Positions 1,542 to 5,180 of a stretch of DNA of 10,577 nt are shown in pieces. Source of the DNA: a virus (lineage: Duplodnaviria; Heunggongvirae; Uroviricota; Caudoviricetes). Made by a program: the position numbers and the translations under genes. Under the pieces are notes generated by a model that was not told the DNA's origin, ran no database searches, and worked only from the letters and a program-made list of their open reading frames with translations. The stretch is taken from IMG/VR virus record IMGVR_UViG_2744054675_000008, positions 1 to 10,577 of that record. The stretch is one strand, 5' to 3'. Position 1 is the stretch's first letter. The number at the start of each line of letters is the position of its first letter.

Positions 1542-2423
1542 TTACATAGATGTTTCGTTTAATTCTTCCCGACGAACGCTGTAAACGTCGGTGGCTTTTG
1601 CCAGCAGTTCTTCATCATCTGAAAGTTTTTGTGCAATGTATTTGTAAGCCTTATCCAGTTCGGAGACAGTGCTGTAATTCATCGCTGCGCTGGTAAAGGC
1701 CATCAGCATTTCTTCTGGATCACGGCTATCCGCTTTACGCGTTTGCTCATCAGGCTTTTTCGCTGGTTTAGCGTTGATCAGACTGTTCATTCCCGCAGCA
1801 GTGGTCGTTTGCGGAGTAATGTCTCGCTCAACGCGCGGTGCCGTTTCCTGTAATTCGTCAGGGGTGTAAACACCGAGAAGTACATCAGGAGCGTGCAGGC
1901 GAGCCCATCGTTTCGTGCAAAGATAGGCAAGCTGCTGGCGCGGATCCTGTTCCCACAATGGAGAGTTACGCACTCCGGCTTGCGCCATACTGATGGTAAG
2001 CTCACGGGGTTCTGCTTCTCCTTTAAGAACTGCTGACACAGTTACCGTCAGATTCGGTGATTTATCTGTTTTGCCGTTAACATTCGACCAGTCACCGCTC
2101 CAGCGATAATTCAGGCGTGTCGCTAGCAGGCTGGAAGAGGATACGACCGCGTTTACCAACTGTGCTTCGTAGCCTAACGTTCCGTTTACCACATGCGTTT
2201 TCTGCGCCACGGCGAAAGGATTCATTCCCCACTGTGCCGCCTGCATGGTCACCGCCAGACAATCGGCAGGTTTGCCTTCAAGATGTTTCGGTACAGTCGC
2301 TTTGCTTTGTGACATCAACTCCGCGAAACGCACCAGTTGATTCATGCCCTCCGGGCTGAAGATTGCCGCAGCAGTACCTACAGTTGCGCCTGGTTGTGAT
2401 GTGATTGCGATATCATTGCTCAT
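1542..2423 (-). CDS. Phage single-strand annealing protein, Red-beta (Bet) family recombinase
   Basis: 293 aa. C-terminal region matches lambda Bet as I recall it (…ARL…Y…DE…ERDITP motif) and an N-terminal segment resembles the Bet core. ATGA overlap with the upstream exonuclease gene, AGGA Shine-Dalgarno. Family assignment from memory, not from a search. Confidence 0.7.
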   Translation of the reverse strand: MSNDIAITSQPGATVGTAAAIFSPEGMNQLVRFAELMSQSKATVPKHLEGKPADCLAVTMQAAQWGMNPFAVAQKTHVVNGTLGYEAQLVNAVVSSSSLLATRLNYRWSGDWSNVNGKTDKSPNLTVTVSAVLKGEAEPRELTISMAQAGVRNSPLWEQDPRQQLAYLCTKRWARLHAPDVLLGVYTPDELQETAPRVERDITPQTTTAAGMNSLINAKPAKKPDEQTRKADSRDPEEMLMAFTSAAMNYSTVSELDKAYKYIAQKLSDDEELLAKATDVYSVRREELNETSM

Positions 2424-3241
2424 ACGTACATATCCTGTTTACGTGCCCAGTCAGGGCGTTTAATAATTTCCACTCCGCCCCACTCATCGTTGATGCGGCA
2501 TTCGTGATAGGTATTCAGATCCCGGCGGAACAGAGCGTGCCCGGCATCGACATCCGGCGCATCCAGCTCGAACACGCGTACCGGATACCGACCACAATCA
2601 ATGCTTTCGCTCACGGCAAGAAAGAAAAAACCATGCGGCTGACCAGTAACCTTCATTGCGCCTTCGCGGTACATTGCGTCCTGCACGTGGTAGCGGAATT
2701 CCTCGATGTGGCGTGCAAAACGGTCCATATCTGCAACCTTTTTCACGTCGACGATCACGTTGTGCTCGTTCAGCCATTTGTCTGGACGAATGCGGCACAA
2801 CTCACCAGTCTCTTCATCGTTCCAGTACATTGATGCTTCGCAGTAACCAGGTGCTTCCAGCATCCAGCGTGCAGCCGGGTGAGCCATTGCGCTATCACGC
2901 ATCAGCTCCAGTTTTCGCCACTGCTCGACATCAAGTACCGTAATACCCATATCCGCCACATCACGAAGAAATGCTTCTTCGTCAGCTTTACCTTGTTTTG
3001 TCCGACGATCGAATTTCGGTGAAACAATGAAGCGTTTGTCGAACTCTCCAGGCTCCAGAAGCAGACAGTGCAATGCGGTTCCCATATCCAGTGCAGACTT
3101 TTTCTCTTCGTCTTCTGGTGCTGCCTGAACCCATTTAAGAAGCGCCGGATTCTTGGCAACCATGTCCAGTTGCGACTTACTCACGCCGTCACCGGCGTGG
3201 TAGTCTTCGTTGCTGATGTCGAAATAAATTCCCGGTTTCAT
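2420..3241 (-). CDS. RecB-family PD-(D/E)XK exonuclease (RecE C-terminal-domain-like phage exonuclease)
   Basis: 273 aa. Motifs in order: RPD (Asp), IVDVKKV (D-x-K) and QDAMY (QxxxY) characteristic of RecB-like nucleases. Sits immediately upstream of and overlaps the annealing-protein gene, the classic exo/annealase pair. GAGGGA Shine-Dalgarno. Confidence 0.7.
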   Translation of the reverse strand: MKPGIYFDISNEDYHAGDGVSKSQLDMVAKNPALLKWVQAAPEDEEKKSALDMGTALHCLLLEPGEFDKRFIVSPKFDRRTKQGKADEEAFLRDVADMGITVLDVEQWRKLELMRDSAMAHPAARWMLEAPGYCEASMYWNDEETGELCRIRPDKWLNEHNVIVDVKKVADMDRFARHIEEFRYHVQDAMYREGAMKVTGQPHGFFFLAVSESIDCGRYPVRVFELDAPDVDAGHALFRRDLNTYHECRINDEWGGVEIIKRPDWARKQDMYV

Positions 3242-3537
3242 GCCGCGTCCCTCTGTCCATCAAGCTGATCCGCCAGATCCCAGCGGGCGATAATTGCCAT
3301 TGCCTCTCGCCGATAGGCATCCATCAGTTCTTCGAACTCAGGGCTGTCTTTAGCAGCCTCCAGTACTTCCTGACGAACGCCTTTGCCTGTTACAACGTCG
3401 AAAGTTGAGGACAGTTGATGAAGTCGGATGCTCTCAATCAGTTCAACTTGTCGGTCATATAGCTGTTCTGACAGGCGGTAGTCCTTGTCGAATGCCAGCA
3501 TGATTTTTTGAAGATTTTTCTGCTGATTAACGTTCAT
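3238..3537 (-). CDS. Hypothetical phage protein (99 aa from the ATG at 3537), upstream of the exonuclease gene
   Basis: In-frame ATGs at 3552 and 3537; the one at 3537 is preceded by GGGAGGG at ideal spacing. Stop overlaps the exonuclease start (ATGA). No family recognised; position is where Gam/Kil-type accessory genes sit in lambdoid phages. Confidence 0.5.
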   Translation of the reverse strand: MNVNQQKNLQKIMLAFDKDYRLSEQLYDRQVELIESIRLHQLSSTFDVVTGKGVRQEVLEAAKDSPEFEELMDAYRREAMAIIARWDLADQLDGQRDAA

Positions 3538-3539
3538 TA

Positions 3540-3692
3540 TCAGCCCTCCCATATCTCGTTATCGTTGGCCACATCGCGAGCTTCTTTGCTGACGAAAGCC
3601 CACTTAATGCCTTCCTGTAAGGTGCGGAACTTCCAGCTCATGAATCCGCATGCAGTAACGCAGTACCAACCGTTGATGATTTTCCACTGCAT
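3540..3692 (-). CDS. Small ORF (50 aa, MQWKIINGWYCVTACGFMSWKFRTLQEGIKWAFVSKEARDVANDNEIWEG), first gene downstream of the predicted PL; not in the supplied ORF track
   Basis: ATG at 3692-3690 preceded by GAGGT with 8-nt spacing; stop TGA at 3542-3540 overlaps the start region of the next gene. Translation verified codon by codon. Trp/Cys rich, not Arg rich. Confidence 0.5.
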   Translation of the reverse strand: MQWKIINGWYCVTACGFMSWKFRTLQEGIKWAFVSKEARDVANDNEIWEG

Positions 3693-3710
3693 AACTTGTT
3701 ACCTCGGTCT

Positions 3711-3727
3711 GTTACCGTTTAGGTAAT
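3711..3727. promoter_or_regulatory. Operator site OL-a (GTTACC gttta GGTAAT), overlapping -10/+1 of predicted PL
   Basis: 17-bp inverted repeat of the RTTACC-N5-GGTAAY family, seen 7 times in three intergenic clusters. Confidence 0.6.
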
Positions 3728-3754
3728 AATTATGCGTATTTGGTTTGATGTCAA
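3726..3754 (-). promoter_or_regulatory. Predicted leftward early promoter (PL-like): -35 TTGACA, 17-bp spacer, -10 AATTAT
   Basis: Consensus -35 hexamer read on minus strand (plus 3754-3749) and a -10 with the conserved A and T positions (plus 3731-3726); flanked by two operators. Confidence 0.5.
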
Positions 3755-3772
3755 TAGATATGAGTTAAAAAA

Positions 3773-3789
3773 ATTACCCATTAGGTAAT
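3773..3789. promoter_or_regulatory. Operator site OL-b (ATTACC catta GGTAAT), perfect palindrome upstream of the PL -35
   Basis: Perfect 6-bp inverted arms with 5-bp spacer; centre is 62 bp from the OL-a centre. Confidence 0.6.
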
Positions 3790-3795
3790 AGTATA

Positions 3796-3826
3796 GGCAA
3801 TAAAAAAGCCGCCAGAAGGCGGCTTA
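3796..3826 (-). terminator. Rho-independent terminator of the repressor gene
   Basis: On the minus strand: stem AAGCCGCC / GGCGGCUU with UUCU loop followed by UUUUUUAUU; the repressor stop codon lies in the stem. Confidence 0.7.
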
Positions 3827-4429
3827 CTTACTGAAAAGTATTATTTTATTGTTTGTTTTTTCGTTCTGGTTGATGACAAATTCACTGTAACTTTCGATCT
3901 TTGCTTTCTCGGTTTCAGGTAACAATGCGTAGCGCGAGCGGTCATAGTTGATAGTTGCAGGGTCGTGCGGGTGAATCAGTAGTTCATATCCGTGACGCCC
4001 GAATGCAGATGCAACATTCTCCAGGGTGGAAATGGAAACGCTGACCTCATTGTTTAACAGGCGGCTGATTGTCACCTGGGCGACGCCGGATGCGCGGTGA
4101 AGTTTTCCCTGTGTTGAAAGGTCGCGGCTTTCGCTCATCCAGCGTTCCAGGTTGTGAGCCGCCAGCTGACCAATGTCGCTTGGGCCGACAGGCTGAAAAC
4201 CTTCCTGAGAAAGCGAGCGATCGATATCAAGCCAGTTACGGGGTTTATTGGCGGCAGCTTCAATTTTTCGCGCAACCTGGTCGCCGATAACCTTCTTGCC
4301 AAGAGCCCAGCGGTTTACCAGATTTGCCTGAGTTCCAAGTTTTTCAGCCATCCGCGTCTGAACACCATTGAATTCACGGTCGATCAAGTCGTTGAGATTT
4401 TGCCTGCGGACGTCCTGGATACTTTTCAT
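3824..4429 (-). CDS. Prophage repressor (CI-functional analogue) with two HTH_XRE-like domains and no LexA-like peptidase domain
   Basis: 201 aa. N-terminal segment GVQTRMAEKLGTQANLVNRWALGKKVIGDQVARKIE and C-terminal segment ASGVAQVTISRLLNNEVSVSISTLENVASAFG both fit the XRE-type HTH pattern. No GDSM-type Ser/Lys autocleavage motifs. Divergent from the Cro-like gene, flanked by operator clusters and followed by a terminator. No obvious Shine-Dalgarno. Confidence 0.7.
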   Translation of the reverse strand: MKSIQDVRRQNLNDLIDREFNGVQTRMAEKLGTQANLVNRWALGKKVIGDQVARKIEAAANKPRNWLDIDRSLSQEGFQPVGPSDIGQLAAHNLERWMSESRDLSTQGKLHRASGVAQVTISRLLNNEVSVSISTLENVASAFGRHGYELLIHPHDPATINYDRSRYALLPETEKAKIESYSEFVINQNEKTNNKIILFSK

Positions 4430-4483
4430 TTTCTGGAAAATCGCCTCATATATGAATCAGTAGATGATTCAATTTAAAGCAAT

Positions 4484-4500
4484 ATTACCCAATAGGTAAA
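4484..4500. promoter_or_regulatory. Operator site OR-1 (ATTACC caata GGTAAA)
   Basis: Member of the 17-bp inverted-repeat family in the repressor/Cro intergenic region. Confidence 0.55.
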
Positions 4501-4517
4501 TGCACCCCATAGGTAAC
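4501..4517. promoter_or_regulatory. Operator site OR-2, degenerate (tgcACC ccata GGTAAC), abutting OR-1
   Basis: One perfect half-site (GGTAAC) and a partial one; centre 17 bp from the OR-1 centre. Confidence 0.4.
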
Positions 4518-4522
4518 TATCC

Positions 4523-4558
4523 TTGATTTTTGTTACCTTATGGGTGAATATTTATTAT
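4523..4558 (+). promoter_or_regulatory. Predicted rightward early promoter (PR-like) for the Cro-like gene; exact hexamers ambiguous
   Basis: Candidates: -35 TTGTTA (4530-4535) with -10 TATTAT (4553-4558) at 17-bp spacing, or -35 TTGATT (4523-4528) with -10 GAATAT. Both overlap operator OR-3. Confidence 0.45.
4532..4548. promoter_or_regulatory. Operator site OR-3 (GTTACC ttatg GGTGAA), overlapping PR
   Basis: Perfect left half-site, partial right half-site; mirror image of OR-2. Confidence 0.5.
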
Positions 4559-4583
4559 CTGAAATAAATATCAGGCAATAGCT

Positions 4584-4814
4584 ATGAGCGATAACGGACA
4601 TTTCGATTTCAAAAAGCACTGGCTTGCACTTACTCCGGATGAGCGTGAAGCCTTCGCACAGGAAGCCGGAACGACGAGTCATTATATCCAGACTCACTTA
4701 ACAGGTAAGCGCAAAATGCCAGGTAAAGTATTGATGAATGGGCTTTTTAAAGCCTGTAAAACAAGACAATGGCTGCGCTCAAAAGCAGAACTGGCATACT
4801 TCTTCTACTCATGA
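4584..4814 (+). CDS. Cro-like small HTH regulator (76 aa), divergent from the repressor gene
   Basis: Position (first gene of the rightward operon) and a central HTH-like segment FAQEAGTTSHYIQTHLTGKRKMPGKVL. Family not identified beyond Cro/YdaS-like resemblance. Confidence 0.55.
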   Translation: MSDNGHFDFKKHWLALTPDEREAFAQEAGTTSHYIQTHLTGKRKMPGKVLMNGLFKACKTRQWLRSKAELAYFFYS

Positions 4815-4836
4815 TATCCAGCTACAACCCTCTGTA

Positions 4837-4860
4837 GACCGCCACCCGGCGGTCTTTTCA
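4837..4860 (+). terminator. Rho-independent terminator just downstream of the Cro-like gene (tR1-like position)
   Basis: Stem GACCGCC / GGCGGTC (7 bp, perfect) with ACCC loop followed by TTTTCATAT; preceded by a second small stem-loop CTACA accctc TGTAG (4822-4837). Confidence 0.7.
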
Positions 4861-4963
4861 TATCTATTCGTACCTCAAAGGTAATAAAAAACCAAATGTG
4901 GTTGATCTTTTTTTTGTGTCAGCACAAAATGACCGTAATCCCAATACCAATAACAGGGCTTAC

Positions 4964-5165
4964 CATGGAAATCATTACACGTATTGATGCCGCAAAGCGC
5001 GGACTTAAACGCTACTACACCGGAAAAACATGTAAGCACGGACATGACAGTGAACGCTGGGTTTACAACGGACACTGTGTTGAGTGCACCATGGAATCAA
5101 ACCGTCGTATCAGGGCAGAGATTAAGCAGATCATGATTAATTCCTCCCCACAACATTCAAGCTGA
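4964..5165 (+). CDS. Small zinc-ribbon-like protein (66 aa) at the cII position; function unknown
   Basis: ATG at 4964 preceded by AGGG at 6-nt spacing (the ORF track's longer 4896 start lacks a Shine-Dalgarno). Sequence TGKTCKHGHDSERWVYNGHCVECT carries C-x2-H-x-H and H-C-x2-C, suggestive of metal binding. Confidence 0.5.
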
Positions 5166-5180
5166 TAGCGGAGATTAATC

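Follow-up and report, generated by a model that had tools for sequence, protein, structure and literature searches.

Palindromic sites, probably operators of a Rep-family lysogeny repressor, in the early region of a phiV10-like prophage of Escherichia coli

Results

Genes and promoters of the early region

We analysed the early region of an E. coli prophage of the phiV10/epsilon15-like (Uetakevirus) type, a stretch of 10,577 nucleotides (the window) with ~98% identity to phiV10. Its immunity region was found in 562 of 5426 complete E. coli genomes (~10%). The genes of a repressor and of a Cro-like regulator lie in divergent orientation. A leftward promoter, PL, serves an operon comprising ORFs of 50 and 104 aa, an exonuclease and RecT, and a third early promoter precedes a DUF1064 gene. 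The Rfam search of the window returned zero RNA families. The genes, promoters and terminators are the following:

3726..3754, minus strand: PL promoter, TTGACA-17-AATTAT, from the promoter scan; its -35 (GTCAATAG on the plus strand) is invariant among relatives
3806..3825, minus strand: intrinsic terminator 3' of the repressor gene, from the terminator scan; annotated in phiV10
3824..4429, minus strand: repressor gene, 201 aa, homologue of SPC32H Rep and epsilon15 gp38
4530..4558, plus strand: PR promoter for the Cro-like gene, TTGTTA-17-TATTAT, from the promoter scan; region invariant in 78 relatives
4584..4814, plus strand: gene of the Cro-like regulator, 76 aa, homologue of epsilon15 gp39 (PHROG 35 'transcriptional repressor', E 5.6e-13; synteny)
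4836..4855, plus strand: intrinsic terminator 3' of the Cro-like gene, from the scan; annotated in phiV10
4901..4929, plus strand: candidate promoter of the replication operon, TTGATC (4901-4906)-17-CAAAAT (4924-4929), read by eye from the sequence
6850..6878, plus strand: third early promoter, TTGATT (6850-6855)-17-TTAATT (6873-6878), read by eye from the sequence
6896..7240, plus strand: DUF1064 gene, Holliday-junction-resolvase-like, first of the third unit (Pfam PF06356; PHROG 190)

Pfam gave zero matches for the 76-aa Cro-like protein. The third promoter stayed below the threshold of the promoter scanner; its -35 (TATTGA) and its -10 region are kept in all relatives. For the repressor gene, a promoter was sought in 4430-4500, where the scanner gave none and the best hand reading had 7 of 12 matches.

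A family of 17-bp palindromes between the genes

Eight 17-bp sites of a common form, all intergenic by the ORF map, are predicted to be operators; they are listed without a strand, and the scores are those of the weight matrix described below:

3711..3727: OL proximal operator, GTTACCGTTTAGGTAAT; exact core, 20.7 bits, arms kept in all relatives
3773..3789: OL distal operator, ATTACCCATTAGGTAAT; perfect 6-bp arms, 23.9 bits
4484..4500: OR3-like operator, closest to the repressor gene, ATTACCCAATAGGTAAA; exact core, 21.8 bits, kept in all relatives
4501..4517: OR2-like degenerate operator, TGCACCCCATAGGTAAC; two core mismatches, 3.7 bits alone
4532..4548: OR1-like operator, overlapping the -35 and spacer of PR, GTTACCTTATGGGTGAA; one core mismatch, 12.6 bits
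4869..4885: auxiliary or weak operator, CGTACCTCAAAGGTAAT; one core mismatch, 13.2 bits
6815..6831: third-promoter distal operator, GTTACCTATTGGGTAAC; perfect 6-bp arms, 18.0 bits
6877..6893: third-promoter proximal operator, ATTACCTTAGAGGTAAA; exact core, 22.8 bits

Seven of these sites, and 4869-4885 as an eighth, weaker one, had been listed in an earlier sequence-only reading of the window, and in our check all eight had the sequences described and the intergenic positions claimed. The consensus RTTACC-N5-GGTAAY, which had been given for all seven, fits only three of them (3711-3727, 3773-3789 and 6815-6831; 0 matches expected in the window). Because the strict consensus gave three matches, we replaced it with a 10-base core, TTACC-N5-GGTAA, and a weight matrix trained exclusively on the sites of relatives, with a cut-off of at least 12 bits. 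The core has five exact matches in the window against 0 expected, adding 4484-4500 and 6877-6893 to the strict three, and none arose in 200 shuffles. With up to two core mismatches there are 12 matches against 2.75 expected; the matches inside genes number four, each with two mismatches, as expected by chance. At or above the cut-off the matrix finds seven sites (0.04 expected), namely the five exact ones, 4869-4885 and 4532-4548. The site called weaker in the first reading therefore scores as well as one of those listed in full, and in place of the three perfect palindromes counted there, two sites have perfect 6-bp arms (3773 and 6815) and five have perfect 5-bp arms.

We confirmed the spacings that had been reported, with centres 62 bp apart at 3719/3781 and at 6823/6885, and steps of 17 and 31 bp within OR. 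That the sites accompany promoters was borne out by the scan at PL and PR, whereas at the third promoter it follows from the hand reading, in a region conserved in relatives. The OL proximal operator is centred at about +1 of PL and covers the last 2 nt of the -10 hexamer; the distal one is centred 62 bp farther upstream, and the PL -35 lies 19 nt downstream of it. The third promoter shows the same operator register as PL: 6877-6893 shares bases with the -10, with the expected +1 and with the DUF1064 ribosome-binding site, and its partner 6815-6831 lies directly past the terminator 3' of the P gene, at a position whose homologue in epsilon15 is annotated 'protein_bind repressor'.

Within OR, 4501-4517 abuts the OR3-like site (centres 17 bp apart) and combines a perfect right half-site with GCACC on the left. 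It is not significant alone, and it is credible only because epsilon15, SPC32H and a Klebsiella phage have a perfect site at that position. The GCACC variant is kept in Tyrion and BUCT554, and its arms are invariant in 78 relatives. The OR1-like site is imperfect in every relative, with either half affected. For a simple cooperative model, abutting sites with a 17-bp step are awkward, because they face almost opposite sides of the helix.

The start that the candidate promoter at 4901-4929 would give lies ~60 bp downstream of the centre of 4869-4885, and OR1 is 337 bp away from this centre. The site has a counterpart at equal distance in phiV10 and Tyrion, and among close relatives its right half is invariant while the left half reads GTACC, GCACC or TCACC. 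A partner sought 62 bp downstream amounted to a TGACC half-site only, so that the site is unpaired. The 27 nt at 4871-4897 are 89% complementary to 6865-6891, which had prompted the idea of a leftward promoter at this site, antisense to the cro-like gene. We rejected it, since that strand has no -35-like hexamer at the proper distance; the resemblance is due to the operator plus an A/T run.

Sites in whole phage genomes

The first reading had described a regulon of seven sites, but the whole genomes of relatives carry 14-16, some of them before terS, the head genes, ant/tailspike, the lysis genes and int, and those in the late regions are often single. In phiV10, 12 of 14 sites fall in intergenic DNA, which by annotation makes up 6.5% of the genome (P = 4.5e-13). 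Ten exact sites were found in the 39-kb prophage and none in ~60 kb of host chromosome. The E. coli members have no operators annotated in either RefSeq or GenBank.

Conservation and population footprint

The layout (a PL pair 62 bp apart, an OR triplet and a third-promoter pair 62 bp apart) is kept in 11 relatives, with repressor identities of 40-99%. These are phiV10, Tyrion, BUCT554, ST512-KPC3phi13.3, epsilon15, SPC32H and, from genome contigs, five prophages, and they span Escherichia, Enterobacter, Klebsiella, Salmonella, Citrobacter, Erwinia and Superficieibacter. A distance of 62 bp recurs in 21 of 22 pairs: at the third promoter in 11 of 11 relatives and at OL in 10 of 11, the Klebsiella type having 63 bp. 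Across the relatives the arms are invariant and the spacers variable.

A scan of IMG/VR with the repressor alignment yielded only near-identical (~99%) relatives, which were used for a population footprint and not for distant co-variation. Among ~78 of them the arms are constrained like codon positions 1 and 2 and the spacers vary freely (diversity pi 0.008 in arms, 0.17 in spacers and 0.06 at 4-fold degenerate sites); the distal site 6815-6831, for example, occurs with 32 distinct spacers between invariant arms. Operator spacers are thus ~3x as diverse as 4-fold degenerate codon sites among near-identical phages.

The unconstrained DNA round the sites is unusually diverse beside 4-fold degenerate sites, as recombination junctions would be expected to be, and this would suit the view that the repeats bind no protein and are either chance AT-rich promoter sequence or 'linker' homologies for the exchange of phage modules. 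We consider this highly improbable, given the empty shuffles, the strict dyad-symmetric conservation with invariant arms and free spacers, and the fixed register to the -10 elements. A Providencia clade (11 loci) also speaks against it: zero exact TTACC-N5-GGTAA were found there, and the promoters equivalent to the operator-bearing ones carry TTAACC-N5-GGTTAA, so that both half-sites are altered symmetrically.

The repressor and its co-variation with the motif

The 201-aa repressor matches SPC32H Rep (PDB 5D50_A) over residues 1-190 in a phmmer search against PDB (E 3.9e-41). SPC32H Rep is a tetrameric repressor that lacks a self-cleaving domain and is inactivated by an antirepressor. It binds DNA with its N-terminal domain, dimerises through the middle domain and uses the C-terminal one for tetramerisation and Ant binding, and F187 and F190 are residues of its tetramer interface (PMC9986798). 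The C-terminus of the window repressor aligns with the tetramerisation domain and has Y and F at these two positions. Pfam reports HTH_3 at 106-147 and a weak YdaS-like match at 21-61; a Peptidase_S24 self-cleavage domain was sought in the repressor with Pfam and is absent. Having no LexA-like cleavage domain, the protein does not belong to a switch of the lambda CI type. Overexpression of the near-identical ZX5 repressor blocked the lytic cycle (PMC9782041).

In an alignment of six homologous repressors the mean column identity is 66% and NLVNRW is invariant. The motif follows this N-terminal helix, because repressors with NLVNRW go with TTACC and those of the Providencia clade, with NVISRY, go without it. 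Such tracking argues against the palindromes being mainly the targets of another regulator (the 76-aa Cro-like protein, or AlpA/PerC-like proteins) rather than of the 201-aa repressor, as do the curators of epsilon15, who ascribe the motif to the repressor, and the late, lysis and int sites, which suit a prophage-wide silencer better than Cro. We regard another main regulator as unlikely, even though PHROG annotates the Cro-like protein as a transcriptional repressor, Cro and CI share operators in lambdoid phages, and two distinct palindrome families adjoin at the same promoters in the Providencia clade, which suggests that at least two DNA-binding proteins act there. At some sites the Cro-like protein could be the main binder.

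Discussion

The palindrome family is genuine. The analysis demonstrates a statistically significant and conserved motif that co-varies with the repressor, and a repressor homologous to Rep. Its members (consensus ATTACC-N5-GGTAAT, core TTACC-N5-GGTAA) are very probably the operators of the lysogeny repressor, a protein of the SPC32H Rep/epsilon15 gp38 family. The assignment of the sites to the product of 3824-4429, made in the first reading, is thus supported at the level of sequence by four independent lines, namely Rep homology, syntenic sites, the arm footprint and helix co-variation. This is not a new kind of system, since motif and repressor family have already been described for epsilon15 and SPC32H; the window is the E. 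coli case.

The GenBank record of epsilon15 (AY150271.2; repressor gp38) marks ATTACC-N5-GGTAAT as 'protein_bind: repressor' at OL, at the third promoter and in the late regions. Both phages have this 17-bp motif, the same gene order, PL sites with 62-bp spacing downstream of the repressor gene, and a site upstream of the first gene past the replication genes. However, OL of epsilon15 comprises three sites (spacings 62 and 76 bp) as against two in the window phage, the middle OR site of epsilon15 is perfect instead of GCACC-degenerate, 4869-4885 has no counterpart there at one mismatch or fewer, the record leaves its own OR sites unannotated, and the repressors are just 41-42% identical. A Rep-Ant lytic switch of Salmonella phage SPC32H/SPN1S has reportedly been described by Kim & Ryu in 2013 and Kim et al. 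in 2016, with structures PDB 5D50 and 5D4Z. The window shares with it a full-length homologous repressor of three domains, and the SPC32H genome contains the motif and the layout. It differs in its host, E. coli, in a 7-residue frameshifted tail at the C-terminal end of the repressor, and in that ant lies outside the window.

In the mechanism that we propose, the N-terminal helix-turn-helix with the invariant NLVNRW helix would read each TTACC half-site, and one palindrome would be occupied by a pair of N-terminal DNA-binding domains. Rep is a tetramer in which the paired DNA-binding domains come from different dimers, and it is reported to bind DNA in this form, dimers binding weakly (PMC9638917). 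As a tetramer (a dimer of dimers), one Rep molecule could bind a pair of palindromes. PL and the third promoter each have one site, centred at about +1, that overlaps the -10, with its partner exactly 62 bp upstream, and since 62 bp correspond to ~5.9 helical turns both would lie on the same DNA face. A bridging tetramer, or two cooperating ones, might then enclose the promoter and block RNA polymerase. Cooperative binding over 62 bp would fit the invariant spacing and the published tetrameric Rep, and SPC32H Rep has been assigned a 'TetDloop' fold for which it was proposed that recognition sites are bound cooperatively over a loop (PMC9986798). At OR, the weak site over PR, 31 bp from the abutting pair by the repressor gene, may provide for repression of PR and autoregulation of the repressor.

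We put forward only tentatively that Rep may repress two early promoters by a fixed 62-bp micro-loop (sites at +1 and -62) round the whole promoter. With single or abutting sites also placed ahead of nearly all other transcription units, one repressor could then silence the prophage by direct repression, with no need of an antitermination cascade. The spacer diversity could, on the same tentative footing, reflect selection that retunes the strength of operators, or else a hot spot of mutation or recombination where the repressor occupies the DNA. It is also conceivable, if somewhat doubtful, that domain pairs bind each operator independently, with neither bridging nor looping, and that the 62 bp reflect promoter geometry, one site blocking the -10 and +1 and the other an upstream element or an activator site. 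The ~210 Å of straight 62-bp DNA far exceed the ~100 Å that separate the paired middle domains in the Rep tetramer (PMC9986798), so that bridging would need sharp DNA bending or long linkers, and the frequently single sites in the late regions of relatives suggest that single sites are sufficient there. Independent binding is, however, difficult to reconcile with a spacing retained in 21 of 22 pairs although repressors are just 40% identical and the intervening DNA diverges, and with the weak binding reported for dimers.

The arrangement resembles the CI-Cro regions of lambda, 434 and P22 in the divergent repressor and cro-like genes round a three-site OR, with one operator over PR, and in the 17-bp dyad-symmetric operators with a non-contacted central spacer. 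Switches of the lambda CI type carry evenly spaced operators, three each at OL and OR, ~2.3 turns apart. In the window, by contrast, OR is spaced by 17 and 31 bp rather than ~23-24 bp, the promoter at OL is bracketed by two sites at a distance of 62 bp, and the repressor has no S24 self-cleavage domain and is presumed to be induced by an antirepressor. In place of a purely N/Q antitermination cascade there would be a third early promoter under operator control, along with the late, lysis and int sites of relatives. Rco of plasmid pLS20 also combines an N-terminal HTH with a C-terminal p53-like tetramerisation domain, but it forms longer loops with many sites and several tetramers, whereas the candidate loop of the window is a fixed 62 bp round one promoter.

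This immunity region is carried by phiV10-type phages used in the detection of O157. The operator map offers a testable model of promoter shutdown by a tetrameric, antirepressor-controlled repressor, and may help to design reporters and induction-proof or virulent derivatives. It also bears on the prediction of cross-immunity, because the operator core is common to members from E. coli, Enterobacter, Klebsiella and Salmonella, with repressors just 40% identical.

Induction would not involve self-cleavage of the repressor; instead, a small LexA-controlled antirepressor (Ant), encoded beyond the 10.6-kb window, in which ant is absent, is expected to pull the tetramer apart. The Ant homologue of phiV10, the 98% relative, is 88% identical to SPC32H Ant, and a perfect LexA box (CTGTATAAATACACAG) lies immediately upstream of its gene. 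In the EC1722-1 prophage, the position equivalent to phiV10 ant is taken by a gene of 85 aa.

Genomic context of the early region

Positions 3500-7300 of the window align over their full length, at 97.6-98.2% identity, with the Escherichia phages phiV10, vB_EcoP_PAS61, phiv142-3 and others, all members of the genus Uetakevirus, i.e., epsilon15-like temperate podophages, and the gene order is that of phiV10. We found the immunity region in 562 of 5426 complete E. coli genomes, the closest copy being part of a 39-kb prophage integrated at guaA. The genes and promoters concerned are:

leftward operon, minus strand: two small ORFs, PD-(D/E)XK exonuclease, RecT (Pfam/PHROG, phiV10 synteny)
3824-4429, leftward: repressor gene, adjoining the leftward operon
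4584-4814, rightward: Cro-like gene, 76 aa
3' of the Cro-like gene, rightward: 66-aa ORF, DnaT-like initiator, lambda-P-like protein
DUF1064 gene: start of a further rightward block
3754..3726, minus strand: PL, the leftward early promoter, TTGACA-17-AATTAT (promoter scan)
4530..4558: PR, the rightward early promoter, TTGTTA-17-TATTAT (promoter scan)
6850-6855 and 6873-6878: third promoter, TTGATT, 17 bp, TTAATT (read from sequence)

At 1542-3241, RecT (293 aa) and the exonuclease (273 aa) are encoded by two separate genes that overlap, as in the prophage of E. coli EC1722-1; in the phiV10 record the annotation gives one CDS, a 'recET fusion'. The DnaT-like gene contains, at 5435-5587, four to six imperfect direct repeats of 18-24 bp (families D1-D3; e.g., GAATGATCCCAAAAACGGGATGTT) that specify an Asn/Gly-rich repeat; they resemble origin iterons lying within an initiator gene, as in lambda O.

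Palindromes and promoters in the window

The sequence-only reading had described seven 17-bp operators in three clusters, OL (sites 3711 and 3773), OR (4484, 4501 and 4532) and the third promoter (6815 and 6877). All coordinates carry the sequences described, all sites are intergenic according to the ORF map, and the spacings (62, 62, 17 and 31 bp) were confirmed. The consensus RTTACC-N5-GGTAAY, however, fits only 3711, 3773 and 6815 as written, and perfect 6-bp arms occur at two sites, not three. Overlap with promoters was recovered by promoter scan for PL and PR, but the third promoter was only read from the sequence.

The core TTACC-N5-GGTAA has five exact sites in the window, with one mismatch at 4532 and at 4869 and two at 4501, and no exact match appeared across 200 dinucleotide-preserving shuffles. 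Allowing up to two mismatches, there were 12 matches versus 2.75 expected; the four within genes all have two mismatches, as chance predicts. A weight matrix trained solely on sites of other phages placed seven window sites at or above the cut-off of 12 bits (0.04 expected). The match at 4869-4885, previously called weaker, does carry one mismatch, but its score (13.2 bits) equals that of 4532-4548 (12.6 bits), and 4501-4517 reaches only 3.7 bits. The top sub-threshold match (8.9 bits; about 0.15 expected by chance) is another near-palindrome with ATCAC...GTGAT arms, ATTATCACTTTGGTGAT at 9598-9614, directly 3' of the stop codon of the 8670-9590 ORF.

The operator register is the same at PL and the third promoter, the last two bases of the -10 hexamer being the first two of the 17-mer, so that the proximal sites would be centred near +1 and their partners near -62. 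Terminators at 4836-4855 and about 6786-6803 divide the early-right region into three units, with one or more sites ahead of each; this points to direct repression of all three.

Three further elements were observed. The 4869 site with its A-rich flank (4871-4897) is 89% complementary over 27 nt to 6865-6891, the -10/operator region of the third promoter (pair I2); a -35 box for a leftward promoter at 4871-4897 was looked for and not found. A perfect palindrome with 7-bp arms, TGAATCA-GTAGA-TGATTCA (4453-4471), is located between the start codon of the repressor gene and the OR sites; it is present once in the window, nearly invariant in 78 close relatives and retained only in part by Tyrion and BUCT554. 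The corresponding position in epsilon15 carries a predicted IHF site. The palindrome may belong to the promoter or leader of the repressor gene, or be bound by a second factor. Just 3' of the PR -10, within the leader of the cro-like gene, a single-copy element CTGAAATAAATATCAG (4559-4574; CTGA-N8-TCAG) resembles a degenerate LexA box with CTGA instead of CTGT; it is kept in the phiV10/Tyrion/BUCT554 group and not conserved in epsilon15 and SPC32H.

The repressor and assignment of the motif

Residues 1-190 of the 201-aa protein align with Rep, the repressor of the Salmonella phage SPC32H (PDB 5D50, E 3.9e-41; C-terminal fragment 5D4Z). Secondary sources describe an N-terminal DNA-binding, a middle dimerisation and a C-terminal tetramerisation/antirepressor-binding domain, a tetramer that binds palindromic sites through pairs of DNA-binding domains from different dimers, and inactivation by a tetrameric antirepressor (Ant), not by cleavage (PMC9638917; PMC9986798; PMC7380047). 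Pfam detected no S24 peptidase domain in the window repressor, consistent with inactivation by an antirepressor instead of cleavage. Its strongest Pfam match, HTH_3 (residues 106-147), corresponds to the middle dimerisation domain of the structure papers and not to the N-terminal reader, which has a weak YdaS-like match; domain scans alone would therefore indicate the wrong DNA reader in this protein.

At the 3' end of the gene (3856-3861), a 1-bp homopolymer deletion on the coding strand (A6 versus A7 in phiV10 and EC1722-1) shifts the final codons, and the repressor ends in ...NEKTNNKIILFSK (201 aa) versus ...NEKNKQ (194 aa), with its stop codon inside the terminator stem. A few IMG/VR contigs (L016, L051, L052, L078) likewise align across residues 1-200 of the longer form, so that the allele is probably real, as opposed to an error of sequencing.

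In GenBank, the record of epsilon15, whose repressor is 41-42% identical to that of the window, carries 'protein_bind, repressor, lysogeny' features with the sequence ATTACC-N5-GGTAAT: three belong to OL, another precedes the gene that follows the replication genes, and late regions hold three more. The operator of this repressor family had thus been assigned before, and the window motif is that operator; the earlier interpretation of the palindromes as operators of the 3824-4429 repressor is supported and essentially right in substance. Much is already known, as the repressor family is structurally characterised and the motif is annotated for the type phage of the genus; in E. coli phiV10-type members the operators are unannotated in the records and unmapped in the study of phage ZX5 (PMC9782041). 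Three points are mildly new: a strictly conserved +1/-62 bracket that recurs at two promoters, how far the regulon extends, and the hypervariability of the spacers.

Operator-like sites in whole genomes

The motif does not define a seven-site regulon, as had been proposed, because whole genomes carry sites beyond the early region. In phiV10, where annotated intergenic DNA makes up 6.5% of the genome, 12 of the 14 sites at up to one mismatch are intergenic (binomial P = 4.5e-13). Sites 86-102 and 104-120, the remaining two, are annotated inside terS and precede an in-frame Met-Met at about nt 119; they are probably upstream of the true start, and the annotated TTG start (nt 41) is probably too far upstream. 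The EC1722-1 guaA prophage has 16 sites at up to one mismatch, 10 of them exact, in about 39 kb, and about 60 kb of the EC1722-1 chromosome has three one-mismatch matches and no exact one, close to chance. A comparable density in coding sequence or host, which the sequence-only reading had named as speaking against the operators, was thus not seen; sites were enriched in intergenic and prophage DNA instead. Further operator-like sites are:

phiV10: 86-120, 3251, 20496, 20876, 24691, 26869
EC1722-1 prophage: 4716, 15875, 15893, 19442, 36974, 38034, 38127, 39247

In related whole genomes, sites precede terS, head genes, the lysis cassette and int, and two flank the ant homologue, one downstream and one in the ant/tail-fibre intergenic region.

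Conservation of layout and diversity of spacers

The same layout occurs in phiV10, Enterobacter phages Tyrion and BUCT554, Klebsiella phage ST512-KPC3phi13.3, epsilon15 and SPC32H, and in prophages of Superficieibacter, Erwinia dacicola, K. pneumoniae and two Citrobacter species. The OL pair has a spacing of 62 bp, or 63 bp in the Klebsiella type; the three OR sites are spaced at 17 and 30/31 bp, and the third-promoter pair is again 62 bp apart. Arms, -35 boxes and terminators are invariant in the aligned relatives, whereas spacers and other intergenic bases diverge. The position of 4501-4517 is a perfect site in epsilon15 and SPC32H, and no phage compared has a perfect site over PR, the affected half differing between them.

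Among 80 IMG/VR contigs (L016-L095; 78 distinct sequences) with repressors about 99% identical, nucleotide diversity of the arms was 0.008, the same as at codon positions 1+2, versus 0.17 in the spacers, 0.034 in other intergenic DNA and 0.06 at 4-fold degenerate sites. Third-codon positions drawn at random 20,000 times never reached the spacer value; site 6815 alone has 32 central pentamers (6821-6825) and site 3773 has 13, with unchanging arms. Unconstrained intergenic neighbours (e.g., 3790-3797 and 6805-6814) show similar diversity. The hypervariability may reflect a relaxation of constraint, selection that tunes how strong the operators are, or junctions of recombination.

Co-variation with the recognition helix

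All repressors accompanying the TTACC motif have an invariant N-terminal helix, NLVNRW. In a Providencia alcalifaciens prophage and ten related IMG/VR contigs the homologue is 33% identical with the helix NVISRY, and no exact TTACC-N5-GGTAA was found in them. The homologous PL, third-promoter and OR positions carry TTAACC-N5-GGTTAA, both half-sites being changed symmetrically, with conserved arms and variable spacers, which ties the motif to the repressor lineage. A second palindrome, ATAAACA-N3-TGTTTAT, occurs at the same promoters, at the third promoter only 1 bp from the first family, which shows that at least two DNA-binding proteins can act there. Providencia-type palindromes are:

Providencia prophage (L014): 1171-1205, 4153-4169, 4226-4242, 4397-4413
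related IMG/VR contigs: L098-L107

Proposed repression and induction

In the most likely model for the lysogen, Rep tetramers would sit on these sites. Occupancy of the +1 site would block open-complex formation at PL and the third promoter, and the -62 site, being in phase (62/10.5 = 5.9 turns), might supply cooperative or bridging contacts. At OR, the weak PR site and the middle site, 31 bp apart (2.95 turns), share a helical phase, and the abutting pair (17 bp) adjoining the repressor gene might serve in autoregulation. That Rep binds here, that it loops the DNA and what each OR site does are inferred. The paired middle domains of the tetramer lie about 100 A apart in the crystal (PMC9986798), versus about 210 A for 62 bp of straight DNA, so bridging would need strong bending.

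Overexpression of the near-identical ZX5 repressor blocked lytic growth, and the ZX5 antirepressor promotes it (PMC9782041). Induction would be expected via a LexA-controlled Ant, encoded outside the window: phiV10 Ant is 88% identical to SPC32H Ant, and a perfect LexA box lies upstream of its gene.
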